This document shows positions 1,291-16,619 of a stretch of DNA of 33,151 bases, piece after piece. The stretch comes from a virus. Taxonomy: Duplodnaviria > Caudoviricetes. Position 1 is the stretch's first letter; the number at the start of each line of letters is the position of its first letter. The position numbers and the translations under genes are program-made. The notes below the pieces were generated by a model. The model did no database searches and was not told the DNA's origin. It was given only the letters and a program-made list of their open reading frames with translations. The stretch spans positions 1 through 33,151 of the IMG/VR virus record IMGVR_UViG_3300020045_002431; one strand, written 5' to 3'.

Positions 1291-1707
1291 TTAGAAGATA
1301 GCGCCAGAAAGCTTACTACTCTGCACAACATACCCCTTATCTATTGCCCTTGCAACATCGCACAACACCCGCTGCCGAGAGTGCTTTGCAAAGCCAGACG
1401 ATAGCATTGTTTCGCTAATGTCTGACGCTTCCTGCCCGGCTTTCTCTGCAATAAGCCCTACAATAGCGGCAAGGATACTGCGCGAGCCCTGCAGATACTC
1501 TAAGCCCCTCGGCGTTACAGTGTAGCTAATACGCATACATTCCCGCATGCGTTGCATTGTCTCTATCTTGCAATGCTTGCGTGTCATACCCTTGAGAACA
1601 TCCTGCGCACTGGATCGTGCCATGTGAAAATGTGCTGCAATGTTTTCTGCCTTCAGGCCATTGGCTGCAATACGCTTGCCGCTGGCGTGTTTGATGTATG
1701 TGATCAT
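1291..1707 (-). CDS. putative HTH/winged-helix DNA-binding protein
   Basis: 138 aa basic ORF, GAGGA RBS; helix-turn-helix-like segment LKAENIAAHFHMARSSAQDVL and wHTH-like YTVTPRGLEYL. Confidence 0.55.
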   Translation of the reverse strand: MITYIKHASGKRIAANGLKAENIAAHFHMARSSAQDVLKGMTRKHCKIETMQRMRECMRISYTVTPRGLEYLQGSRSILAAIVGLIAEKAGQEASDISETMLSSGFAKHSRQRVLCDVARAIDKGYVVQSSKLSGAIF

Positions 1708-1719
1708 TTTGTGTAGTCC

Positions 1720-2070
1720 TCAGAAAGCAGCATATACAAAGCAATTGCCTACGCGACCAAGACAGATAGTGTGGTTCTGCAGATATTCCTCAACTAACTC
1801 CAGCTTTTCATCTTCATCGACATTGCCTTCTTCATCTTGCTCAATATCTGATGTGTCAATACGATAATTGCTGATGATGTCGTCCACGTCTTGTTCGTCG
1901 AATTCGCAGCAGATCGCCACCACATCAAGCTCCAGCTCTTCTCCAGTAGAATCCTCGTAATCTTCCAGATAATCGAAGATAACGCGCTTGGCTTCATAGC
2001 TGAAAGAGTCTTGACGATCATACGCCCGGAAAGCGTCGCAGAAGTCACAGAAGGATACAGATGTTTTCAT
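1720..2070 (-). CDS. highly acidic early protein (candidate DNA mimic)
   Basis: 116 aa, about 33 D/E vs about 8 K/R by hand count; GGAG RBS. Confidence 0.75.
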   Translation of the reverse strand: MKTSVSFCDFCDAFRAYDRQDSFSYEAKRVIFDYLEDYEDSTGEELELDVVAICCEFDEQDVDDIISNYRIDTSDIEQDEEGNVDEDEKLELVEEYLQNHTICLGRVGNCFVYAAF

Positions 2071-2127
2071 GATAAAGCTCCAATAAAGAATGAATAAGAG
2101 AACAACAGGGAGAACAATAACACGTTA

Positions 2128-2286
2128 TCAGAAGCCCTTGCAAGCTTCGCAGATTAGTGCTGCCGTAAGGCACCGCAGCGCCGTGGCTTCATTATACCCT
2201 GTACGCTTGATGATGTTGCGCTTCGCTGCAAAGCGGCCCCATTGATTTACATTGCGGGCTGCATTGATAACGGTTTGTGTGTGCAT
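2128..2286 (-). CDS. small hypothetical protein (52 aa), first gene of the leftmost early operon
   Basis: MHTQTVINAARNVNQWGRFAAKR...CEACKGF*, AAGGA RBS, just downstream of promoter. Confidence 0.7.
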   Translation of the reverse strand: MHTQTVINAARNVNQWGRFAAKRNIIKRTGYNEATALRCLTAALICEACKGF

Positions 2287-2324
2287 GGCTTGTTTCCTTG
2301 TGGGTTGTTAGTTGGTATGACTGA

Positions 2325-2352
2325 ATTCTACGCCATACGTTAAACATAGCAA
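2325..2352 (-). promoter_or_regulatory. sigma70-like promoter
   Basis: TTGCTA-16-TAGAAT. Confidence 0.55.
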
Positions 2353-2442
2353 GAAAATGTTTTCTATTGCGTAAGCCCTTCTCTATTGCTTTTACCTATA
2401 AGGCTATCCCGCTATAAAAGAATAACGCACGCGCGTACACGT

Positions 2443-2458
2443 AGCAAGCCCCGTGCCA
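2443..2458 (-). promoter_or_regulatory. sigma54 (RpoN) -24/-12 consensus site
   Basis: minus strand TGGCACGGGGCTTGCT matches TGGCACG-N4-TTGC(A/T). Confidence 0.6.
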
Positions 2459-2498
2459 TTAATCGCGAAAGATTAACAAGCAAGAATTTGTCAAGTGG

Positions 2499-2511
2499 TA
2501 TATCATTGATT
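2499..2511 (-). promoter_or_regulatory. IHF-like binding site
   Basis: AATCAATGATATA, one mismatch to WATCAANNNNTTR. Confidence 0.35.
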
Positions 2512-2537
2512 TATTCAATAGCCGCCGAAAAGGGTAG

Positions 2538-2554
2538 CTGGCACGAGTTTTGCC
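2538..2554 (+). promoter_or_regulatory. sigma54 (RpoN) -24/-12 consensus site
   Basis: CTGGCACGAGTTTTGCC, exact GG-N10-GC spacing. Confidence 0.55.
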
Positions 2555-2787
2555 AAAAGCTATGCCCGATAGGCTTCCGCTATGGCCTTGAGGGTTCTCG
2601 ATTAGTTTCACGCTTTTGGTGCAAGCAAAGACCCTTCAGGCTAGTAGGGTACCGAAGGATCTGTGGGGAGGTTTTCGGAGCTAGGGACTATCCCCGGTTC
2701 GTTGTAAACGAAATGGGGTTGCCTAAATCCTAACGAAAATTTCCTATGAGAATTGCCCAGCAGAGTGACTGAACACTACGGACTGAA

Positions 2788-3522
2788 CTACGTCCTTAGT
2801 ATGAAAGCCTCATCTGGAATATTCCGTAGGCAGTCAAGAATGTGCACCTCCACACGTCCTTCCCAGTAATCCGCTACCAATTTACCTAGCGCGCGTTTCT
2901 CTTCTTTATACCACAAATGTGCTGATTCTTTATCAGAGAAACTCTTACTTTTCTTAACTCCGAAGTGTTTGTTATTAATACAAGCTCTCCACGGAAGCTT
3001 TAGATTTTGTGTTCTAGTCACACCAGTATAACAACAATCCTCTCGTATTTTATGCCGCTTAAGGAAGCCATTGATCTCAATAGGAATAAGAGAACAATAG
3101 TCTTTCCCATAGGTTCTATTTCCAATTACCTTCATATCCTTATCTATTTCATACACGTTCCCATTCTCATCAGTGAAATTGCAGAATGGTTGAGATGCGT
3201 ACCAAGAACTGAAGCCCCTTAAGGTTCTAAAATCATCTGCAAGGTAGCACAACGTTAGTCTGTGTTGTGCGGTAAACTTAGGACAGCACCTTCTCAAAAC
3301 TCCCCTATAAATCGAAATTATATTTTTAGGAATTGGAATTGGCTTTTCTGTTTTTGGAACTGGAATTGATAACCTCTGTGCTCGAATCTCATATCCAGTT
3401 ACAACACAGTGTCGGTTATCTTCCACTCTTTTTACGATGATATACTTAAAGTTAACACACTCTTCAACTAAACAAATCCCTAATTCTTCTATAAATACTT
3501 TATCTCCAACCACGATTGCCAC
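2788..3522 (-). CDS. putative HNH-like homing endonuclease with C-terminal AP2-like domain
   Basis: FSSWY...EIDKDMKVIGNRTYGKDYCSLIPIEIN motif typical of phage free-standing endonucleases; TGVT...WRACI...FSDKESAHLWY; AT-rich relative to neighbours. Confidence 0.7.
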   Translation of the reverse strand: MAIVVGDKVFIEELGICLVEECVNFKYIIVKRVEDNRHCVVTGYEIRAQRLSIPVPKTEKPIPIPKNIISIYRGVLRRCCPKFTAQHRLTLCYLADDFRTLRGFSSWYASQPFCNFTDENGNVYEIDKDMKVIGNRTYGKDYCSLIPIEINGFLKRHKIREDCCYTGVTRTQNLKLPWRACINNKHFGVKKSKSFSDKESAHLWYKEEKRALGKLVADYWEGRVEVHILDCLRNIPDEAFILRT

Positions 3523-3798
3523 CGATTCCCTCCTTTCATATCATTTTCCCAGAATAAGCTGTCTAAACTGTACTGAGCTGTACAGTTATGATTACCCTAA
3601 GTTGTACTCATTAGTATAGTTATAAATCCTTGAATTGTATTGGTAATTCCACCAGTACAGTTGTCACATATTTCCGTCAAATCCTAATAAATAGCGAAAT
3701 GACGGAACATGTGTGTTTTGGCTCAAATCCCACAGGTAAAAGGTAAAATAAGGATTAAAAATTCAATCTGGAAATGTCTAAATGGAAATCGGAAAAGG

Positions 3799-4104
3799 TT
3801 ATTTGGAACTCAAGCAGTCAGGAACATCTGGAACACGATTATAGTTCCACCACTCAGAGCCATCATACTCTCCACGATCTGACCACGTACCGTCCTTGTA
3901 CCAAATGATACCGTATACTTCTTGACCCCCATATCCAGCATCGTAGATAAAATCAATTTCTGTTAGGAAGGCTGAGAAGTCCTTAACTGAAAACCCAACC
4001 TTAAGCTGTTTAGTAATCTCATGACTATCTTCTCGTGTGACATAAGCGCACAGTACATCCTTGCCTTCAATCTCTTCCAGAAACTCTTCTTTACAATTAC
4101 GCAT
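3799..4104 (-). CDS. conserved-looking hypothetical phage protein
   Basis: YDAGYGGQEVYGIIWYKDGTWSDRGEYDGSEWW; AGGAGG RBS. Confidence 0.85.
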   Translation of the reverse strand: MRNCKEEFLEEIEGKDVLCAYVTREDSHEITKQLKVGFSVKDFSAFLTEIDFIYDAGYGGQEVYGIIWYKDGTWSDRGEYDGSEWWNYNRVPDVPDCLSSK

Positions 4105-4148
4105 ACAATCCTCCTAAATTAAAAATCAATATCTTATCTGCGAAAGCC

Positions 4149-4355
4149 CTAGTCCAAAATCAATTCGCCAGCAAGCCAAGCCTCCCGTGTCACTACCATC
4201 ACCTTCTTACCTTTAAGTTGTGGTGACATCATAGAATACCAATCCTCTCCACGTTCGATCCATAAAGTTGTGTAATAGTCTTCTGGAGTTGCTCCATTCT
4301 GAGGCTGTGCTTCCACAAGCTTTAGCTTACCAAATGCTTTGTAGGGTATTTTCAT
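4149..4355 (-). CDS. hypothetical protein
   Basis: 68 aa, TAATG overlap with upstream gene. Confidence 0.75.
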   Translation of the reverse strand: MKIPYKAFGKLKLVEAQPQNGATPEDYYTTLWIERGEDWYSMMSPQLKGKKVMVVTREAWLAGELILD

Positions 4356-4627
4356 TAAACTTCCACCAACTTAACATTCAGCTTGCGAATGATTTCAGCC
4401 TTACCCAACACATAGGAAACTTCCTTCAAAGTCAGAGCATCGCGATTAGTGAACTTGATTGTTCGATCTGTCCACCAATCACAACCCATAGTAAAAATAG
4501 TTAAGCTATTATCATAATTGAACAGCCCCACTACTTTCTCCTCCTCGTTATGAGACACCAACAACACATCCCCAATAGCGTACGTTTCTTCAGCTTTCTC
4601 TTGCGGACTCTTCAGTTCAATTTGCAT
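4355..4627 (-). CDS. hypothetical protein
   Basis: 90 aa, AGGAG RBS. Confidence 0.8.
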   Translation of the reverse strand: MQIELKSPQEKAEETYAIGDVLLVSHNEEEKVVGLFNYDNSLTIFTMGCDWWTDRTIKFTNRDALTLKEVSYVLGKAEIIRKLNVKLVEV

Positions 4628-4660
4628 GTGTTTCTCCTAAGTTTCTTGATAAATTGGATT

Positions 4661-4894
4661 TTAGATTAGACTACTAGAAATGTCAAGTGCTAATTCAGTA
4701 ACCATGAGAATTACTTCCCCTGCCTCCCAAGTGGGCTTCTGCTGTGCGTTAAACTCCTTGTGTTCTCTGGGCGTAAGCCAAGGAGTTTCGTAGCCACAGC
4801 ACTCACATTTATACTGCACCTTGCCCCTTGAAAGCGTGTAGCAAGGGTGATAGTGGTGCCCCAGTACAAGACAGGTCATCCCCTTAAACATGCT
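4661..4894 (-). CDS. small Cys/His-rich hypothetical protein
   Basis: MFKGMTCLVLGHHY...YKCECCG; likely start near 4891-4894 abutting upstream stop. Confidence 0.55.
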   Translation of the reverse strand, partial: SMFKGMTCLVLGHHYHPCYTLSRGKVQYKCECCGYETPWLTPREHKEFNAQQKPTWEAGEVILMVTELALDISSSLI

Positions 4895-5085
4895 CACAGC
4901 ACAACCCCATAATTTTCTAACTCTGAGTCCGTGCATTCCACTACTTCAGCTTCTCCGCCGATTGACTGAATAATACCCACAAAATCAAAAAGTCCAATAC
5001 TGTGCCCTTCGTAGAACAGGGAATTGCCTCTGTACACTTTAACCCAATCGCCCTCTCCAAGACTATTCGTGTAGATCTTAATCAT
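4894..5085 (-). CDS. hypothetical protein
   Basis: MIKIYTNSLGEGDWVKVY..., GAGGG RBS before ATG at 5085. Confidence 0.7.
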   Translation of the reverse strand: MIKIYTNSLGEGDWVKVYRGNSLFYEGHSIGLFDFVGIIQSIGGEAEVVECTDSELENYGVVL

Positions 5086-5398
5086 GTTGGCATCCCTCAC
5101 ATTGCTCCACAATCCTCTCCATATTCATCTGGATATACCAATCAAGATAGTCCACATACTTACTCTCCAGCCCAAGAGGGCCACGGCGTAGCTCCTTTGT
5201 AGCTGTGCTGATGAAGTCGTATAGATCAACACCTTCTACGTGGAAGCTCCACACCTCAAACTCTGCAGGCCAGCCTCCATCTTCAGGATCACCGTCAGCG
5301 CTATATGACGTAGTAGCTTCCTCTGGAGTAAAAACTCCCGTAAGCACAGCCTCGTGCTCGAAGAACGGGAGGGTGATTGTTGATAGGGATTGTTTCAT
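5078..5398 (-). CDS. hypothetical protein
   Basis: 106 aa acidic ORF, ATGA overlap with upstream gene. Confidence 0.75.
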   Translation of the reverse strand: MKQSLSTITLPFFEHEAVLTGVFTPEEATTSYSADGDPEDGGWPAEFEVWSFHVEGVDLYDFISTATKELRRGPLGLESKYVDYLDWYIQMNMERIVEQCEGCQHD

Positions 5399-6168
5399 TG
5401 TTGGGCCTTTCGGTATGCTACGATGCGACTTGTATTGCCGTGATTACCCCAATCCCAGTGGTAACCATAAAGAGAAATGTCCTGCTTTGTTTCAGCACCG
5501 CACACCAATACCTCCACTCTGCATTCCTTGGCCCACTCGGGGCACGCCGTTTGAGCGGTAGCGATAAACGGAACCCAATAGCCCTTGTCAAAAGCAAGCT
5601 CTTCATCACACTTCTCAGCCTTCTTGAAGGCCACATCCTCCGGCTTATAAGCAGGGGCAGGGGGCGTCCAAGGGAGGATTTTGTGGGGGATGTGTACAAG
5701 GTGACAGAAGCCATCACCTGAATACCGATACCAACGTTTACCCCCTGTGAGCCGATAAGGAACCCCCACCTCTGTGTAAAGATCAACTTCCACCACTTTA
5801 GCGCGTGAGCCGTCCGACAGGACTACCTTATCCCCCACCTTCAGCTTAACGTCTGAGGACATTGGGACGAGGGTTTCTGGACGTGTGCCCTTTACAGGCT
5901 TATGCTTGCTTCGTTTGGGCTGTTGTGACGGGCCTTTATCAGCAGAACAGATGTGCCTGAGATCTACATCAATTATTTCACCATCTGCTGTCTCAGCAAG
6001 TAAAGCAGTAGGAAGTCCCGTATGGCGTTGCAAAAACCAGTTCAACGTCTGTGGAGCACGTTTTCCATGAACAAACCTAGTACCAAAAAGGTACATGATA
6101 TTTTCCTCCAAATACCCTTGTGCTTGAGCCTTCTTTACGTCAGCCGTTGTGGCGGATTTCATCTTCAT
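5395..6168 (-). CDS. hypothetical multi-domain phage protein
   Basis: 257 aa, AAGGAG RBS; SH3/KOW-like LKVGDKVVLSDGSRAKVVEV segment. Confidence 0.75.
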   Translation of the reverse strand: MKMKSATTADVKKAQAQGYLEENIMYLFGTRFVHGKRAPQTLNWFLQRHTGLPTALLAETADGEIIDVDLRHICSADKGPSQQPKRSKHKPVKGTRPETLVPMSSDVKLKVGDKVVLSDGSRAKVVEVDLYTEVGVPYRLTGGKRWYRYSGDGFCHLVHIPHKILPWTPPAPAYKPEDVAFKKAEKCDEELAFDKGYWVPFIATAQTACPEWAKECRVEVLVCGAETKQDISLYGYHWDWGNHGNTSRIVAYRKAQQ

Positions 6169-6250
6169 TCTCCTTTATAAAACCATTTTTCATTCCCGTT
6201 CTGTGAAATCGTGACACAGAAACGATAAATCATCATTCCTAAACTGGGAA

Positions 6251-6433
6251 TTATTCTGCTTCCCAGATCCCGCCGTCAATGTAATTGTTAGCCCATTCTT
6301 GCCAGCACTCGTCTAGGAATGTTGCACGTTGATCTTCGTCCATCCCTTCGAAGTTCTCATCATCAATCTCAAGCACGTCTGTATGCTTTGCGCCTACAAA
6401 ACCAATACTCAATGACACATTAAATTTTGCCAT
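6251..6433 (-). CDS. small acidic hypothetical protein (60 aa)
   Basis: MAKFNVSLSIGFVGAKHTDVLEIDDE...GGIWEAE; GAGGAG RBS; own promoter. Confidence 0.8.
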   Translation of the reverse strand: MAKFNVSLSIGFVGAKHTDVLEIDDENFEGMDEDQRATFLDECWQEWANNYIDGGIWEAE

Positions 6434-6467
6434 GTCGTTCTCCTCGTTTGTTGTTCCCATAGACATA

Positions 6468-6505
6468 ATAATAGGGCTATCAACTGTGAAAGTCAATAGC
6501 CCTAT
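6468..6505 (-). promoter_or_regulatory. sigma70-like promoter embedded in 14-bp inverted repeat
   Basis: TTGACT-17-TATTAT; arms 6471-6484 and 6492-6505. Confidence 0.7.
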
Positions 6506-6510
6506 GTGAA

Positions 6511-6780
6511 TTATTTAAAGTGGTGATGCCGGTAATACTCAAGCCACGACTCAAGCTGTTCCTGTGTCCAACCAGAGGAAGCAGGCTTAGTTCCCAACTC
6601 GTACAGTCCAAGACGTTCTGACTCAGCTACAAGTTCGTCAAGGGTCATTGCATAGCCAATGCCCTCAACAGTATGCCTGCAAGTTGCTTCATCCTCCTGT
6701 ACATCCAAGTATTCCTCCCAAGCTTCGTGCTCAAGAGCTTTCAGAAAAGCAGATTCACTGTTGAAATCTTCTCGTTCCAT
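6511..6780 (-). CDS. acidic hypothetical protein
   Basis: MEREDFNSESAF..., GGAGG RBS. Confidence 0.75.
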   Translation of the reverse strand: MEREDFNSESAFLKALEHEAWEEYLDVQEDEATCRHTVEGIGYAMTLDELVAESERLGLYELGTKPASSGWTQEQLESWLEYYRHHHFK

Positions 6781-7058
6781 CACATCTCCTCCAGCCAAGA
6801 GCCGTCCATGTCAGTCTTCATACTCAGCCAAGGCTTCTCCAGAGCCTTCTGGAACAAGTCAATCTGGCATTGCATTCCTTCAGGCTCTCCTGCAAGCACA
6901 GCAGCAGGAGATGTGCTCCAAGAAGTAGGCTCTCCAGCTTCGTTGTAATACACCTCGTGAATGGCATACTCGAATTCTCCGTTGCCGCAGTAGGCGGAGA
7001 TTACTCGGTAGTTCCATGTGCGAGACTTTAGTTTTGATGTGCGCTTAATCTTCAACAT
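6780..7058 (-). CDS. hypothetical phage protein
   Basis: MLKIKRTSK...TWNYRVI...YAIHEVYY...ALEKP. Confidence 0.8.
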   Translation of the reverse strand: MLKIKRTSKLKSRTWNYRVISAYCGNGEFEYAIHEVYYNEAGEPTSWSTSPAAVLAGEPEGMQCQIDLFQKALEKPWLSMKTDMDGSWLEEM

Positions 7059-7059
7059 G

Positions 7060-7218
7060 TTAACCCCACTCTTCCAGCATCGCCTGCTCAGGACTCTTCC
7101 CCTCGTCGTAGTAGTCCTCATAGAGGTTCTTACATTTCAGCATAGCTGTCTTTTGTTTAATCCCAGAGGCCATCGAGAGGCACACTGAGAAGAATTGCTC
7201 GAAGTTGTTGTATTGCAT
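7060..7218 (-). CDS. small hypothetical protein (52 aa)
   Basis: MQYNNFEQFFSV...AMLEEWG*, TAATG overlap with thyX. Confidence 0.7.
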   Translation of the reverse strand: MQYNNFEQFFSVCLSMASGIKQKTAMLKCKNLYEDYYDEGKSPEQAMLEEWG

Positions 7219-7973
7219 TAGAGTTCCTCTCCATAATTCAATGCCTTCATACTCTCTGGGAAGTAGGTATAAAGAATTGTCCCGAGTTTACCTGCAAACT
7301 CCTGCGCTGCATTCTGTGCATGACCGTCTCGACGTAACTGGCAGATTCTATTCATGGCCAGAAGCGATCCTGACCAGATCCACGTTGTCATTGCGTTCAA
7401 TGGAAGCACGATACGAGCTTCTTCTGGTGCCACGCCTGAGTCTAACAAACGGTAGTACATCTTAATGGCATCTACGCTAGAGTCGTGGATGGCACCTAAT
7501 GCGTCATTGTGGTAGTCCCCGTCTTCGTCGCATCCAACCCACAATAGTGTATTATGCTCCTCGTCAGAAGCCCCCTGCTTCGCATGCGCAGGAGCTTCGT
7601 GCACAACGTCTGGCAGCCACAGGGCAACATCACTCTTGATGTAGCGACGGGACTCTTCGTTCCAAGATAATCCCACCTGATGCTTCACAAGCTGACGCGC
7701 AAGAAAGAAAGGCGCTTGCACACGAACACTAATGAACGTATGGCAGAAGGGTGAGAAGTGAGTATGTGCCTTCGCCATAGCTTCCCAGTTATCTCGCTCT
7801 GCTGAAGGCAAGCCTGTTGCAAGGTAAGCCAGCAGGTTAGCATCCTTGGCGCTGAAGGCTGTGTCATCCCATTGTGAGAAAGATACCTTTGCAGCATTTA
7901 CGATGCGTTTATCGTCTCCCATTTTGTCGATAAATTCAACGTTAATAGGTTTAACCTCGATAGTACGGCTCAT
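7218..7973 (-). CDS. thyX: flavin-dependent thymidylate synthase ThyX
   Basis: IVNAAKVSF, HFSPF, ARQLVKHQVGLSWNEESRRY (ThyX motif), APEEARIVLP, HAQ. Confidence 0.95.
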   Translation of the reverse strand: MSRTIEVKPINVEFIDKMGDDKRIVNAAKVSFSQWDDTAFSAKDANLLAYLATGLPSAERDNWEAMAKAHTHFSPFCHTFISVRVQAPFFLARQLVKHQVGLSWNEESRRYIKSDVALWLPDVVHEAPAHAKQGASDEEHNTLLWVGCDEDGDYHNDALGAIHDSSVDAIKMYYRLLDSGVAPEEARIVLPLNAMTTWIWSGSLLAMNRICQLRRDGHAQNAAQEFAGKLGTILYTYFPESMKALNYGEEL

Positions 7974-8248
7974 TCTTCCTCCTCAAAAATAATACTCGGG
8001 TTATTCACAACAGAGTTATGAACCCGCAGTGAATCAGTGCAGTCTTCCCCTTGCCAAACAATAGTTGTTCCTTTCTTCGCTTCACCCAGTCGAAACACCA
8101 ACGTCTCAGCATACACAGAAGAATAAGCACAACTGCTCTCCCGATTAATTGTAGAAACAGTGTCTGTGCTTCCATCGAGCACGAATGTATCACGAGCAAG
8201 ATGCTTTGTCCACTCTTCTCCGTGGCAATCTGTGAATGTGTTGTTCAT
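7970..8248 (-). CDS. hypothetical protein
   Basis: MNNTFTDCHG..., ATGA overlaps at both ends. Confidence 0.7.
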   Translation of the reverse strand: MNNTFTDCHGEEWTKHLARDTFVLDGSTDTVSTINRESSCAYSSVYAETLVFRLGEAKKGTTIVWQGEDCTDSLRVHNSVVNNPSIIFEEEE

Positions 8249-8421
8249 TCCCAATCCTTTCCAAGTTTCGATACTTTATTAGTAAGCAAATGCACACACC
8301 CCTCTGCCTTGTATTCCTTTGACAATCGCTCTGTAGCGTGATCAGGGCTGCTCCCAATAACATAGACGAATGTTACCACGTCTTTAGGGCTTAGGCAACG
8401 GAATTCATAGAGGTATTTCAT
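8245..8421 (-). CDS. small hypothetical protein (58 aa)
   Basis: MKYLYEFRCLSP...GKDWE*, ATGA overlaps. Confidence 0.65.
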   Translation of the reverse strand: MKYLYEFRCLSPKDVVTFVYVIGSSPDHATERLSKEYKAEGCVHLLTNKVSKLGKDWE

Positions 8422-8633
8422 TGACCTACTTTTCCTTGCACCCCGTTACCACAAGTGAATGCACCAAGCACGCTAACCTTCTTCAATCCTAGGTTGACTT
8501 GGCAGACCTCCTCCGCCTTAGCAATGTCTTTCTGCAAGCGGGCATAGTCCATTTTGTCAGTTACAAGAATCACCGCACTGCAGAGAAATCCACAGAGAAA
8601 CGTGAAGCTTATGACGGCAATAATCTCTTTCAT
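8418..8633 (-). CDS. small membrane-anchored protein with two conserved-looking Cys
   Basis: N-terminal hydrophobic helix; AEEVCQVNLGL...CGNG resembles 20471..20683. Confidence 0.7.
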   Translation of the reverse strand: MKEIIAVISFTFLCGFLCSAVILVTDKMDYARLQKDIAKAEEVCQVNLGLKKVSVLGAFTCGNGVQGKVGQ

Positions 8634-8634
8634 A

Positions 8635-8814
8635 TCACTTCTCCTCCACAACACAGCAACGCACTACTTGATTCTGGCTCTCATAGTGCTTGCGAATAAA
8701 ATTGATAACATACTCGTTATCCCGTTCAACATCATCGCAGAAGTTATCCTGTACAACGGAGTTTCCGCTGATGCTGTCTGACAGCTTTGTGTGGCAGCGT
8801 TTTGTGAATGTCAT
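8635..8814 (-). CDS. small hypothetical protein (59 aa)
   Basis: MTFTKRCHTKLS...CCVVEEK*, TAATG overlap. Confidence 0.6.
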   Translation of the reverse strand: MTFTKRCHTKLSDSISGNSVVQDNFCDDVERDNEYVINFIRKHYESQNQVVRCCVVEEK

Positions 8815-9002
8815 TAGTATTTCCTTGGTAAGCTGTCAGAGTAGTCTAAGAAATAGCCCTCTGCAGATAACCCTATGCTTGTTTGCCAAAACCCGAGTGT
8901 AATAGCTCCTAAAAATCCTGCTGCGCACTCCGCAAGACAAACAACCCAGCGAAGAAAATACCATTTGTACGTGTATTCCATGTCCCTCTCCTTATTCAAC
9001 AT
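8814..9002 (-). CDS. small hydrophobic hypothetical protein
   Basis: 62 aa (likely start MEYTY at 8981 with AGGAG RBS); hydrophobic core. Confidence 0.65.
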   Translation of the reverse strand: MLNKERDMEYTYKWYFLRWVVCLAECAAGFLGAITLGFWQTSIGLSAEGYFLDYSDSLPRKY

Positions 9003-9471
9003 TACTCAAAAATTTGTAAGCAGCAATGATTTTGTCATGTCCTACTTTGGTAGCTGCCGCGATGGCAAGCTCTTCGGAGGGGAATGGCGGGAACAGGGTG
9101 AAGCAATACTTGTAACTAGCACAAGTGCCATTAAATTCTTCATTCTCGTCCATCCAATGTGACACGTTACCTTCACCTACCTTCCCAGCCCCTTCACATT
9201 GCCGCAGAGCAATCATAACATGGAAAGCATTGGCAAAGCCTTCTGCTACGGAGCGTTCTTTGAAGGAGTTAAGATCAAGGTCATTATAACGGCCACCTTT
9301 GTCTACCTCTCCGTTAAGATGAAGGGCTACGAAATAGCAGTCTTCGTTAACATCAGCTAAAGCCCAAGGGGATTCTACCTTCGTAGCTTCCCCCACCTTA
9401 GCCAGTACCTCAATTTGCTGCTGAATACTGTTGAGCTGTGCTTGCAGAGACTCGATAGTTTGTTTGGTCAT
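8992..9471 (-). CDS. hypothetical protein with N-terminal coiled coil
   Basis: MTKQTIESLQAQLNSIQQQIEVL..., AAGGAG RBS. Confidence 0.8.
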   Translation of the reverse strand: MTKQTIESLQAQLNSIQQQIEVLAKVGEATKVESPWALADVNEDCYFVALHLNGEVDKGGRYNDLDLNSFKERSVAEGFANAFHVMIALRQCEGAGKVGEGNVSHWMDENEEFNGTCASYKYCFTLFPPFPSEELAIAAATKVGHDKIIAAYKFLSNVE

Positions 9472-10760: not shown

Positions 10761-11680
10761 TTACTTCACTTCACAAGCCCCGCCACCGCAAGCTGCTTGG
10801 TCATTCAAGTTTGTGTTGTCGTCTTCTTCCACTACTTTAGAGAGATCAATATCTTTCAAGTAGCCCATCATTTTCTCGTACACTTCTTTGCTGCAGTCTT
10901 CAAACGGGGCTTGGGTGTAGCTGCCCCCATCATAGTTCAGCACGGCAATACCTGTGTAGAAGTCCTTGTTGTCCCACATCCAAGCACCAACTGTCTCCCA
11001 CTCTTCGTCCCGAACAGAGATTGTGCACGATACGTTGTGCATGTTGTCGCCCTCGATATGCCCCGGCGTGATCCACTCTTGATTCAACTTCTTCACGCGT
11101 TCAAGCGTCGTCAAGGCCGTCTCTGTTCGCAACAGGGCACCTTCTGGAGCCTTCTGAGGAAAACTTAGCACAGCCTCGATGTGGGGCTTTGACTGACAAT
11201 CCTCCACAAGTTCTGGAAGGTTATCAAGCATATACTGGTACAACGCCTCATTCTTGCCGACGCGCATGCGGCGGATGTAGTAGTCATTATACCAAGCATG
11301 CACGCCAGAAGAAGTTCCCAACACACAACTCGTGCTGCCTGCTGGCTTGAGCGTGGTGACGCGCTTTGCTTTCTTAATACCGATCAGCTTTGCTACGCGT
11401 TCGTTCTCCTCTACTGCTACTTTTGCTGCTGCTGTCAAATCTAGCGTCAATACCTTCCCGCTGCCCACGCCTGTGATGCCAACACCAAGAAGAGAGTCCT
11501 CCTCTGTAGTTGTACGCCACACTTCCCGTAGATAATGGAAGTCTGTGTAGCCAGCCTGCAGCGTCCCCAAGAAAGCTCCAGCACGGATACGGTCTTCCAA
11601 CTCCTGTTGTGTTTCTACGTCTGATACATTTGTCTCAGTCAAATTACAATAAGAATTTGAACGGAGGCTGATTTCTGCGC
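10761..11680 (-). CDS. nrdJ: class II (B12-dependent) ribonucleotide reductase, exon 2
   Basis: (T)GC-AEISLRSNSYCNLTE..., TTLKPAGSTS, HNVSCT, YTQAPFE, C-terminal CGGGAC redox pair; spliced product 617 aa. Confidence 0.92.
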
Positions 11681-11860
11681 CTCACACCGACGAATTACAT
11701 TGGCCTATCGTCTCGTGCGCTGGACTATCGCATAGCTACTTCTGTGCCCTCCCCCGCTTAGTCTCTCACGCTGCACAGCTCTCGCTTGCTTGCGCCCTGT
11801 CGCCGCACCACCGGCTTCCAAGTCAATAAGGGGGAGTTTATTCAATCCACACGTATGTTT
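11681..11860 (-). mobile_element. ORF-less group I self-splicing intron (180 nt) in nrdJ
   Basis: 5' exon ends in U; P1 AAUCCAU/GUGGAUU with U-G wobble at the splice site; P3 CUCCCCC/GGGGGAG; P7 GACUA/UAGUC; P9 GACGA/UCGUC; terminal G; removal restores NP-C-AEI. Confidence 0.9.
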
Positions 11861-12794: not shown

Positions 12795-13540
12795 TATTCT
12801 TGTTCCTCATGTTTTTGTTTCATGGCCTCTTCGGGGCTAAGCCCATGAAACTCTCCGTAAAATACCCCAATCTCCTCTAGACGTTTAATAGCGGCCTTTC
12901 TGAAAAGGATTGCCATTTCTCTTGCCTCACTCAGCCCGTATTTCTTAATAGAGAAGGATTTCGATCTATACTTTCCGCCCTCCATCCAACACGCAAGATA
13001 GGAAGTTTCCCTGAATTGGACGCCTGTGGCCCCGGAAGTATTGTCCTTCCTTTTCCTTCGGTTTAAGGCCTGATCTTCCAGTATCACCCATTTGCAATTT
13101 TCCTTGTTGTAATTCCCATTTACGTCCTCCCGCTCCAAGGATAGTCGTGGCTCATATGTAGGGAGCATGTCTTCAAGAAACTTCTCAAAGGAATCTAACC
13201 AAGCGGTGCAAACTGTAACCCCCCGCCCACCATAGTCTTTATATTTCGCGTTATTAGGATTGATGCAACGCTGTTTCATATGCATCCAATGGTCATACAA
13301 CTTTGTGCCAGTAAGCCCGTGTGTTTTCATTCGCTTAGACAATAGATCTTTCTTCAGACAACCACAAGACTGCTTTTGACCTGTATTTAAGGTGTTTGTA
13401 GTTACCACTGCACTGTTTCCACACTCACATAGGCAGTCCCATTGGCGATCTCGCCTTTCTCCTCGCAGTAGTATCCCATGAAAGGAAGTCACTGTTAGCC
13501 TCCCAAACACTCTCCCTGTCAGGTCATCTTTTATCTTCAA
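12794..13540 (-). CDS. free-standing HNH homing endonuclease with C-terminal AP2-like domain
   Basis: FGRLTV...WDCLCECG...SCGC...YGGRG...SLEREDVNGNYNKENCKW...NTSGATGV...KSFSIKKYG; TTG start with AAGGAG RBS; stop overlaps nrdJ ATG. Confidence 0.88.
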   Translation of the reverse strand: MKIKDDLTGRVFGRLTVTSFHGILLRGERRDRQWDCLCECGNSAVVTTNTLNTGQKQSCGCLKKDLLSKRMKTHGLTGTKLYDHWMHMKQRCINPNNAKYKDYGGRGVTVCTAWLDSFEKFLEDMLPTYEPRLSLEREDVNGNYNKENCKWVILEDQALNRRKRKDNTSGATGVQFRETSYLACWMEGGKYRSKSFSIKKYGLSEAREMAILFRKAAIKRLEEIGVFYGEFHGLSPEEAMKQKHEEQE

Positions 13541-13584
13541 TTGCTACTCCTTCTTCATTAGAATTATATTTTACTAGGGTACAC

Positions 13585-14633: not shown

Positions 14634-15121
14634 TCTTGATAACACTTTGTATCTCCCTTCTTCATTTTGTATTCACGCAGAAGCTGCAAGAAGCCTGTGA
14701 ATGCCTCCGGGTAGCTACCAACTTGAAAGCAGGATCTTGCAACATCCAGAGGAACATCGTACATCTGAGCCTGTGCTGTGATGTATTCTTGCATTGTTGG
14801 ATAGCCGAGATACTTTGCTTTAGCTAGGAAGGCTTCTCGTTCTACTGGCACTTTATTCATATCCCACTCAACCTTTACAGCATGGTCTGTAAGATTGAAG
14901 CTATCAGGCTTCTTTTCCCAACCATCCTTGAAGCCCTTAATATAAGCCTCGAACTTTGCAGACTTCTCTTCACGGAGTTCTTCCAATGTTGGGGCACTCT
15001 CTGTTCGCGAATAGCAATCAAGAAGCATCTCCGCAAAATGATACCTCGTCATAGGCTCTCCCTCTGCAATAGCTGCTGTCATGGCTCGTTGCCACAGGAT
15101 ATCGATTTCTTGTCTAGTCAT
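14630..15121 (-). CDS. hypothetical protein
   Basis: MTRQEIDILWQRAM..., GGAG RBS. Confidence 0.75.
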   Translation of the reverse strand: MTRQEIDILWQRAMTAAIAEGEPMTRYHFAEMLLDCYSRTESAPTLEELREEKSAKFEAYIKGFKDGWEKKPDSFNLTDHAVKVEWDMNKVPVEREAFLAKAKYLGYPTMQEYITAQAQMYDVPLDVARSCFQVGSYPEAFTGFLQLLREYKMKKGDTKCYQE

Positions 15122-15710
15122 TGATTTTCTCCAGTCCGTGAGTATCTGTATAGCCAGCGCCATGCTGGTTCAACTCTAAAATAAATTGTTCGCGGGCTTT
15201 ACAAGCCATGATAAATGCCTCTTTCTCTCCCAGCTTTTTGATAGAAAAATGTTTGTACTTGCCTCTGCCATTAACGTGTGCCCTAGCAGTATAGTAATAC
15301 CTTGTCCCACTTTTCGTTAATGTGACGCCAGTAACACCAGAAGTGTTGTTTTTAGACATACGCACATTTCTATTATTTAGGTTGCGTTCAACTAGGCGTA
15401 GATTGATAGCACGATTATCCGACCTGTTTTGGTTTATATGGTCTATAAAAAGGTTCTGTGGGGCTTCGCCGTAAAGGAGTGCCCAAACTATTCTGTGTAC
15501 TCTGTAATTAACACCGTTTATTATAACATGGCAATACCCCGTTCTGGCACACAATCCACCGGCCCGATCTCCTGCCAACCTACTACTCTTGTTCTTACCT
15601 TTACTGTCAATCTTGTATTTTAAGCAGCCTACCACAGATTCGTCGTATTCCAACAGGTGTTCAAACATCTCCCTTACACAGATTTTTGTGGTCTGTTTAC
15701 TCTTAGTCAT
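15114..15710 (-). CDS. HNH endonuclease (HNH_3-type) with C-terminal AP2-like domain
   Basis: YRVHRIVW...IDHINQNRSDNRAINLRLV...NNTSGVTGV...KHFSIKKLG. Confidence 0.9.
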   Translation of the reverse strand: MTKSKQTTKICVREMFEHLLEYDESVVGCLKYKIDSKGKNKSSRLAGDRAGGLCARTGYCHVIINGVNYRVHRIVWALLYGEAPQNLFIDHINQNRSDNRAINLRLVERNLNNRNVRMSKNNTSGVTGVTLTKSGTRYYYTARAHVNGRGKYKHFSIKKLGEKEAFIMACKAREQFILELNQHGAGYTDTHGLEKIND

Positions 15711-15770: not shown

Positions 15771-15846
15771 GCCTTTTGTGCAACAAAACCTACCACGGCC
15801 AAGATATGTAACACGGCCATGTTAGAAAATAATTTCTCCACAAAGC

Positions 15847-15875
15847 TTGACTTCTGTGTATTTATGTGAGACAAT
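15847..15875 (+). promoter_or_regulatory. sigma70-like promoter for candidate ncRNA
   Basis: TTGACT-17-GACAAT with TG extension; spacer resembles the 13585-13613 promoter. Confidence 0.6.
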
Positions 15876-15881
15876 GCTCAT

Positions 15882-16310
15882 ATGAAGTCTTGCTGTGTGT
15901 ATCGGAGAAACTAACGTTCCGCATAGCTCGTATCGTCCTAAGAAGAAACTGCACATAGGACAAGGTTGGTAACGGTGATGGAAAGAGCTTTCGAGGGATC
16001 TGATGCTAGATTTCCTTCCCTTGTGTTTAGGGGATACATCGCTTACAGGAAACCTGCAGAGTGGCATTGTGATAGCCATAACTCCTGTACTCGCGGATGG
16101 CACAACATCTCAAGAGAAGCTAGACGACACGAGGGTAATTGTGTTGAATGCTTACTACGCCCTTATCCTTCCTTGCTTAATAGCTTGGTTTGGGTAGGGG
16201 TAACTATAAGCATTCTCCTCTCAGGTAATTATAAGTAATACTTATAGGTTATATAAAGTATACCTTTAAGGTGTACACTACTAAGTATACTACATAGCAC
16301 AAGAACACCC
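15882..16310 (+). ncRNA. candidate large structured non-coding RNA (about 430 nt)
   Basis: 5' end (15888-15902) pairs with 3' end (16287-16304); many nested helices; bounded by promoter and terminator; no credible ORF. Confidence 0.55.
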
Positions 16311-16356
16311 AGCCCTGCCAAGAGCCTAACAAGCTTCTGGCAGGGCTTTCTTCTTT
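16311..16356 (+). terminator. intrinsic terminator
   Basis: AGCCCTGCCA...TGGCAGGGCT followed by TTCTTCTTT. Confidence 0.75.
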
Positions 16357-16381
16357 GTGTAAAATAAATAGAGAAGAATGC

Positions 16382-16410
16382 TTGACAATACATGAATCGT
16401 CTCTTACAAT
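16382..16410 (+). promoter_or_regulatory. sigma70-like promoter, head of right arm
   Basis: TTGACA-17-TACAAT. Confidence 0.8.
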
Positions 16411-16445: not shown

Positions 16446-16619
16446 ATGAGATGCCCACACTGTGATTACCAGACAGGGTATGCTTGGACGGATAACAAAT
16501 TTACTGTAAAGGAAGAGTTCTGGGAACTCCCTGTGGAGTTAAAGCGGGAGGAGGCAGATGGTTGGAAGTATGTCAGCCTCTTCGCCTGCCCTTCATGCAA
16601 GAAAACTTTTATTGATTAA
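16446..16619 (+). CDS. small zinc-ribbon protein (57 aa)
   Basis: MRCPHC...ACPSCKKTFID*, GAGGAG RBS. Confidence 0.75.
   Translation: MRCPHCDYQTGYAWTDNKFTVKEEFWELPVELKREEADGWKYVSLFACPSCKKTFID

Follow-up and report, generated by a model that had tools for sequence, protein, structure and literature searches.

A conserved, unannotated structured non-coding element at the transcription divergence point of a lytic phage, with a tentative reading as a replication pre-primer RNA

What lies in the gap where leftward genes give way to rightward ones in this phage, and what might it do? The window, by which we mean the whole 33,151-nucleotide stretch of DNA analyzed, is a 33-kb fragment of a lytic phage that encodes a primase/helicase (its primase 49% identical to that of Pseudomonas phage phiK7A1), a PolA-type polymerase, an exonuclease, ThyX, a split ribonucleotide reductase, and at least six HNH genes. 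Leftward genes lie left of 15710 and rightward genes right of 16446; the element occupies the gap between them, at the leftward-to-rightward switch 2.3–5.5 kb upstream of primase/helicase. An earlier note had proposed an RNA of about 430 nt here, and every sequence string it quoted was located where it had been placed; the conserved fold, however, covers only ~15892–16230. This stretch of ~340 nt is a real, conserved, unannotated, structured, and non-coding element, set among the following features:

15114–15710, minus strand: HNH_3-AP2 endonuclease gene (Pfam), a neighbor only, outside the element
15794–15819, no strand assigned: direct repeat of 8 nt between divergent promoters, its two copies separated by 18 nt (from sequence; kept in the related loci L002 and L007)
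15847–15875, plus strand: sigma70-like promoter with an extended −10 (9/12 consensus match; conserved in L002, L007, and a contig of run X2)
16311–16356, plus strand: intrinsic-terminator-like hairpin and U tract (folds; conserved in L002 and L007)
16382–16410, plus strand: next promoter (11/12 match), before the rightward genes leading to primase/helicase and DNA polymerase

The promoter proposed earlier is borne out by its consensus match and by its conservation. As for the proposed terminator, the hairpin at 16311–16347 folds with its U tract and is kept in both relatives, but a plus-strand terminator scan missed it. The 8-nt repeat is a possible protein site, either operator or initiator. 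The view that the gap holds no ORF supported by a ribosome-binding site also stands: the ORFs at 15966 and 16003 have neither a Shine-Dalgarno sequence nor a PHROG or Pfam match, and no counterpart was found in L003, L036, or L037. The first gene behind the element (16446–16619) encodes a small protein with a CxxC start, as do genes behind many of the Pseudomonas-type copies described below.

Homologues of the element were found at several depths of divergence. L007 carries a 97% identical copy. The copy in L003 and L004 (primase 83% identical) is 54% identical and is inverted along with its promoter; L036 (with L058) and L037 (primase ~50%) have 38–46% identical versions, and all of these sit at the same divergence point. 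L036 and L037 were picked by eye among the gaps listed for 20 of 51 loci. Four divergent lineages, 38–62% identical, retain six helices, a long-range pseudoknot among them. In a five-row alignment made from sequence only, 90.5% of 169 cells are paired and 25 of 34 pairs are double-changed, counts that cover four lineages and helices picked after viewing the alignment. None of 500 shuffles reached the observed pairing, and controls in which the helices were slid gave 35–44%. The covariation in homologues for which the earlier note had called is accordingly present, pseudoknot included. Two X1 records add two pairing-preserving helix changes and one loop change, at a depth of two only. The conserved parts are:

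15892–15927, plus strand: P1, a 6-bp stem (15892–97/15922–27) with a 24-nt loop; 6/6 pairs double-changed, 100% paired
15935–15961, plus strand: P2, a stem (15935–38/15958–61) whose 19-nt loop holds the pseudoknot strand 15949–53; 85% paired
15974–16043, plus strand: P4 domain, closed by 15974–80/16037–43; 71% of cells paired, two rows out of register
16044–16089, plus strand: P5 (16044–50/16083–89), with an internal loop holding the pseudoknot partner 16055–59, and hairpin P6 (covariation)
16134–16140, plus strand: direct repeat, copy 1 (sequence, shuffles)
16146–16215, plus strand: long 3′ stem with a G-rich 3′ strand, which brings repeat 1 near repeat 2 (folding)
16224–16230, plus strand: direct repeat, copy 2 (sequence, shuffles)
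16231–16304, no strand assigned: AT-rich palindromic tract, a candidate DNA unwinding element (74% AT against 55% in the window)

P1, the pseudoknot, and P5 are paired in every cell of the five-row alignment; six of the seven P5 pairs and three of the five pseudoknot pairs are double-changed. In all four lineages the long 3′ stem reaches −26 to −41 kcal/mol and contains two or three G-U pairs. The fold drawn in the earlier note was right only in part. Its CCUA/UAGG, GGUGAUG/CAUCGCU, and UACAGGA/UCCUGUA helices correspond to P2, P4, and P5 and find support in homologues, and its 16146–54/16207–15 domain is the long 3′ stem. The helix said to close the 5′ end on the 3′ end fails: it has 11/11 pairs in the window, 8/11 in the 97% identical L007 copy, and cannot be aligned in L003, and its 5′ strand pairs locally with 15922–15927 instead in all five sequences. 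An 11-pair long-range helix survives in L003 (7/11 pairs) but falls to 3–4/11 in L036 and L037, and its inner part competes with P2. Absent from that fold were the pseudoknot (15949–53/16055–59) and the direct repeat (16134–40/16224–30).

Folding energy gave a mixed answer. The region 15880–16360 scores z −4.4 on the plus strand and −4.0 on the minus strand, so the whole region does fold better than shuffled controls, a comparison the earlier note had wanted; but the core at 15890–16235, which excludes the terminator and AT tail, scores z −1.7, within the −2.6 to +2.3 spanned by 22 background windows. Energy alone is therefore no proof of an RNA, and the case rests on covariation.

Searches by sequence and by profile define how far the family can be traced. 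In nhmmer leave-one-out runs, L036 and L037 recovered each other, while the window and L003 were not recovered when left out; the link between them therefore rests on the colinear alignment, a blastn E value of 0.047, shared place, and covariation. When the elements of the window, L003, L036, and L037 were compared by blastn with 50,697 phage records, only short chance matches came back. Of the pattern scans, one gave three loci and another eight (five of them chance); a terminator pattern gave two, a pattern for the L036/L037 loop gave three, and a scan of prokaryote genomes gave three matches, all chance. Covariance model R1 found four strong matches in 47 records, all of them training sequences or near copies, and three weak ones, of which the two inspected were chance; models R1 and R2 had no significant match in 35 of 43 metagenome loci. 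No RNA source was present among the sequencing runs listed.

The direct repeat flanks the long 3′ stem, and its sequence differs from phage to phage while both copies still match. It is present in all four window-type lineages, where positional shuffles equal it in 58, 56, 16, and 70 of 5000 trials; with position ignored, the window-type repeat is at chance level (13–59 of 100 shuffles). Among 39 distinct Pseudomonas-type elements, 30 have a repeat of at least 8 nt, against 8% of shuffles. A common partner for the repeat within the RNA was not found (the best candidates reached 2/5 and 5/12 rows in one column bin), a result in keeping with a partner in DNA. The tract after repeat 2 is 75–85% AT in all four window-type lineages, with a sequence in L007 that differs from that of the window; a rise of at least 10 points over the locus follows repeat 2 in 22 of the 39 Pseudomonas-type elements and is missing from 17.

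The element fills a swappable slot where transcription diverges. L002, whose primase is 98% identical, retains the promoter at 94% and the stretch of terminator and next promoter at 89%, but 940 other bases lie between them, and in the X2 contig the same slot ends are joined around 312 other letters. Neither model, nor the descriptor introduced below, has a promoter-linked match in nine near-complete relatives. A guide for the neighboring HNH nuclease, one of four functions put forward earlier, is contradicted by L007, whose copy has no HNH gene alongside; the element is not tied to that neighbor. Inside the same promoter–terminator slot, L002 has a rod-like structure of 260 nt (5060–5320; z −4.8), G-rich on its 3′ strand and followed by an HNH gene; this cassette has no homologue among 51 loci except its own record.

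A similar intergenic element, located at the divergence points of phiK7A1 and XD2, has blastn matches in 184 records; in about 180 records of cultured Pseudomonas myoviruses (PAK_P1 and phiPsa374 groups) it is present and unannotated. The PAK_P1 copy (89496–89816) is at least 99% identical in 112 phage records, which makes this look-alike testable in cultured phages at once; it is unannotated in PAK_P1 and in PAK_P4, where the look-alike lies at 89166–89487. Across twelve copies, 94.7% of 453 cells are paired and 29 of 38 pairs are double-changed, pseudoknot included, and several Pseudomonas phages hold two copies. The Pseudomonas type (PAK_P1, phiPsa374 group, KIL, phiK7A1) resembles the window element in helix order, pseudoknot, repeat-flanked stem, and place; it differs in being shorter (~290 nt), in missing the P4 domain, and in that no terminator was found. 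One descriptor, fitted afterwards, matches 16 of 17 elements of both types. It has a single site in the whole window and two others in ~5 Mb of phage DNA; 3.27 Mb of shuffles contain none. A looser descriptor that matched 17/17 was dropped, having 31 sites in 0.4 Mb of shuffles. Neither covariance models nor HMMs detect one type from the other (the best score was 3.1 bits, on P2), so common descent of the two types is likely but not proven.

A wider viral scan gave 59 loci, 44 of which are model matches at 29 bits or more. Six divergent look-alikes have a window-like AT-rich palindromic tail. L215, L220, and L240 lie directly ahead of a helicase gene (that of L220 recognized by translation only), and L210 and L246 have no replication genes adjoining within the 2.4 kb read. 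In five of the six, the same 8-nt motif precedes repeat 1 as in L003, and the same 5-nt motif precedes repeat 2; this pair, noticed afterwards, occurs three times in 1.17 Mb, one of them the L003 element itself.

Several side observations belong here. L226, L232, L243, L249, L261, and L216 (around 1190–1550) carry a variant of the Pseudomonas type with a short P2 loop and a different middle domain; in L226 and L249 at least, the repeat still surrounds the 3′ stem. Apart from the look-alike, phiK7A1 and XD2 have a second conserved intergenic element after a ~205-aa gene, at L073 10275–10656 and L074 ~8060–8400, with no Rfam match. At the PAK_P3 divergence point, L203 2287–2417 has a promoter, an AT-rich tract, a G-rich hairpin, and a second AT-rich tract, a layout that resembles the window tail, and the large fold is absent. 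The published PAK_P3 small RNAs and pre-primase leader showed no resemblance to the element by eye; the extracts of PMC4933390 and 10.1101/2023.10.13.562163 describe other small RNAs of that phage, and the extract of 10.64898/2026.10.21.760802 contains no mention of Pakpunavirus.

The element lies outside every Rfam family. Rfam 15 gave no match above the gathering threshold in the window, a check the earlier note had proposed; beside the element there was one snoRNA match at E 0.04, which is chance. There was likewise no match on L073, L074, L076, or L078, or over the element in L128, L210, L215, L220, L226, L232, and L240. The earlier exclusion of tRNA, tmRNA, and intron holds up, with no ARAGORN call, an intergenic position, and no Rfam match, the last two of which also led us to reject a group I or group II intron. 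A literature survey, with supplements and published catalogues of candidate viral RNAs outside its scope, turned up no account of this fold. Elsewhere in the window, ~220 nt at 11643–11858 (minus strand) split the ribonucleotide reductase gene after ...GTNP; they show group I-like P7 motifs by eye and no Rfam match at E 1, and are probably an ORF-less group I intron absent from the Rfam library. L003 and L004 have a group I intron at 13328–13576 that scores above the Rfam threshold.

What, then, would such an element do? Of the four functions proposed earlier, a replication primer is the best supported, and we favor it tentatively, at somewhat less than an even chance: the element would encode the pre-primer RNA of a transcription-activated replication origin resembling that of ColE1 RNA II. 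Host RNA polymerase would initiate at 15847–75, as the conserved consensus suggests, and the transcript would fold into P1, P2, the pseudoknot, P4–P6, and the long 3′ stem, the pairings being those that covary. From the geometry of the sequence, the stem could loop out ~70 nt and place RNA repeat 1 beside DNA repeat 2. Because repeat 1 would have the sequence of the non-template strand at repeat 2, it could base-pair there with the template strand and seed an RNA–DNA hybrid that persists and extends into the AT-rich tract. With the hybrid in place, the PolA-type polymerase of the phage may find a 3′ end to use, or primase/helicase may gain access to exposed single-stranded DNA; the terminator would end transcripts that fail to form the hybrid.

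The primer reading accounts for a co-varying repeat that has no RNA partner, for the AT tract, and for the place of the element. In its favor we count the matched variable repeats, the AT tract, the position at divergence points, the helicase-adjacent look-alikes L215, L220, and L240, and the low read counts, given below, of the gene behind the PAK_P4 look-alike. Against it stand the replacement in L002, the nine relatives lacking the element, the double copies, the 17 of 39 weak AT tracts, the placement of L210 and L246 away from replication genes, the short seed that a 7-nt repeat provides, the chance-level result for the window-type repeat with position ignored, and a heavy reliance on the Pseudomonas type, which profile searches fail to link to the window type. 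Given the other cassette of L002 and the nine relatives without a match, the element is not the sole replication start of its clade. A broader proposal, which we regard as possible but rather doubtful, is that a widespread class of phage RNA programs its own R-loop, the core and stem delivering a variable 7–13-nt guide onto an identical DNA repeat and thereby setting the replication origin of PAK_P1-like therapeutic phages and of unrelated phages. Each origin would then owe its specificity to the swapping of cassettes and to paired copies that differ in their repeats.

A stand-alone RNA acting in trans, whether as protein scaffold, decoy, or anti-defence factor carried on an accessory cassette, with the repeats as twin sites for one protein, appears unlikely but deserves weight. 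In the window, L007, and L036 the element comes with a promoter and a terminator of its own, its slot is swapped in L002 and the X2 contig, its distribution is patchy, and its fold is ornate with conserved junction bases. This reading leaves unexplained the AT-rich tract and the constant place at divergence points or helicase genes, and in the Pseudomonas type no terminator was found before the next gene (PAK_P1 scan). Published RNA-seq also bears on it. In the extract of PMC5563952, the one small RNA listed for PAK_P4 is at 91948–92050 and none is at the look-alike; in its supplement 2, the gene behind the look-alike has 1,700–9,200 normalised counts and the gene on the other side 86,000–124,000, counts that are per gene and leave the look-alike itself uncounted. 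As far as these excerpts go, the few reads and the lack of a listed small RNA weigh against an element that boosts read-through and, to a lesser degree, against a free RNA made in abundance.

The same counts weigh on a cis-acting leader, a put-like antiterminator or attenuator controlling elongation or translation of the genes behind, which we judge improbable. Such a leader would suit the element's start ~10–70 nt from a sigma70-like promoter in 15 of the 17 elements examined (both types), and the two copies that head two gene runs in several Pseudomonas phages. In the window, however, a terminator and then a new 11/12 promoter follow the element; in PAK_P4 only one 189-nt gene, weakly read in the extract of PMC5563952, precedes the next strong promoter; and the genes downstream vary between phages.

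Less probable again is a ribozyme or mobile RNA that would spread with HNH endonucleases and whose core, by cutting or joining at the two repeats, would free the long stem. The compact pseudoknotted core and two like sites around a hairpin would suit it, and HNH genes adjoin the element in the window and L037 and sit inside the other cassette of L002. Yet Rfam has no group I, group II, or small-ribozyme match, the element interrupts no gene, the three HNH proteins belong to three PHROG families, and L007 has none; with at least six HNH genes in the window, adjacency is cheap evidence. We give very little credence to a structure that acts in single-stranded DNA or as a cruciform, in which the repeats would be iterons and any RNA incidental: z is similar on both strands and the L036 long stem folds better on the minus strand, but the G-U pairs that are conserved are those of the plus strand, three of four stems fold better on that strand, and orientation to the promoter is retained when the element is inverted in L003.

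Should the element prove to make a primer RNA, a replication origin would be identified for therapy phages of a widely used group, and the ColE1 mechanism would reach into lytic phages in a form that uses a variable guide. Otherwise the element would still represent a new and large structured RNA of phages, one that carries within it a co-varying pair of sites.

Among known RNAs, ROOL, GOLLD, OLE, and HEARO are large, multi-junction, phage-borne RNAs without a known protein, and the element is like them by that general description; it is smaller than ROOL, GOLLD, and OLE and has no Rfam match at gathering or E-value level. HEARO and omega guide RNAs have an obligate link to one nuclease gene of the IscB/TnpB type, and we rejected that assignment, since the neighbor here is an HNH_3-AP2 gene missing in L007 and no obligate nuclease link exists. 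The put RNA of HK022 is ~70 nt with two hairpins; the element resembles it in that a structured RNA would begin close behind a promoter and that two copies sometimes occur, and the low read counts behind the PAK_P4 look-alike in the extract of PMC5563952 suggest a difference from it.

The closest parallels are two R-loop origins treated in the extract of PMC4412123. In T4, oriF and oriG join a promoter to an unwinding element, and T4 and ColE1 share a persistent hybrid (PMC4412123). Like them, the element belongs to a lytic phage and shows a promoter followed by an AT-rich candidate unwinding element; unlike them, it has a conserved fold of 340 nt between the two. In ColE1, a stretch of rG in the nascent RNA pairs with a template dC stretch, and the persistent hybrid primes replication (PMC4412123). 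The element differs in that it is found in a phage and not a plasmid, its repeat is a variable 7–13-mer with no G run, and its hybrid is only predicted; neither an Rfam match to RNA II on either strand nor an equivalent of antisense RNA I was found. Within the part of that mechanism set out in PMC4412123, the likeness to RNA II lies in a promoter-driven structured RNA with a stretch able to pair with the downstream template strand. In our element the promoter and the covarying fold are present, the transcript itself being putative; in all four lineages the direct repeat would provide the complementary stretch; and the window, as the ColE1 system, has a PolA-family polymerase.
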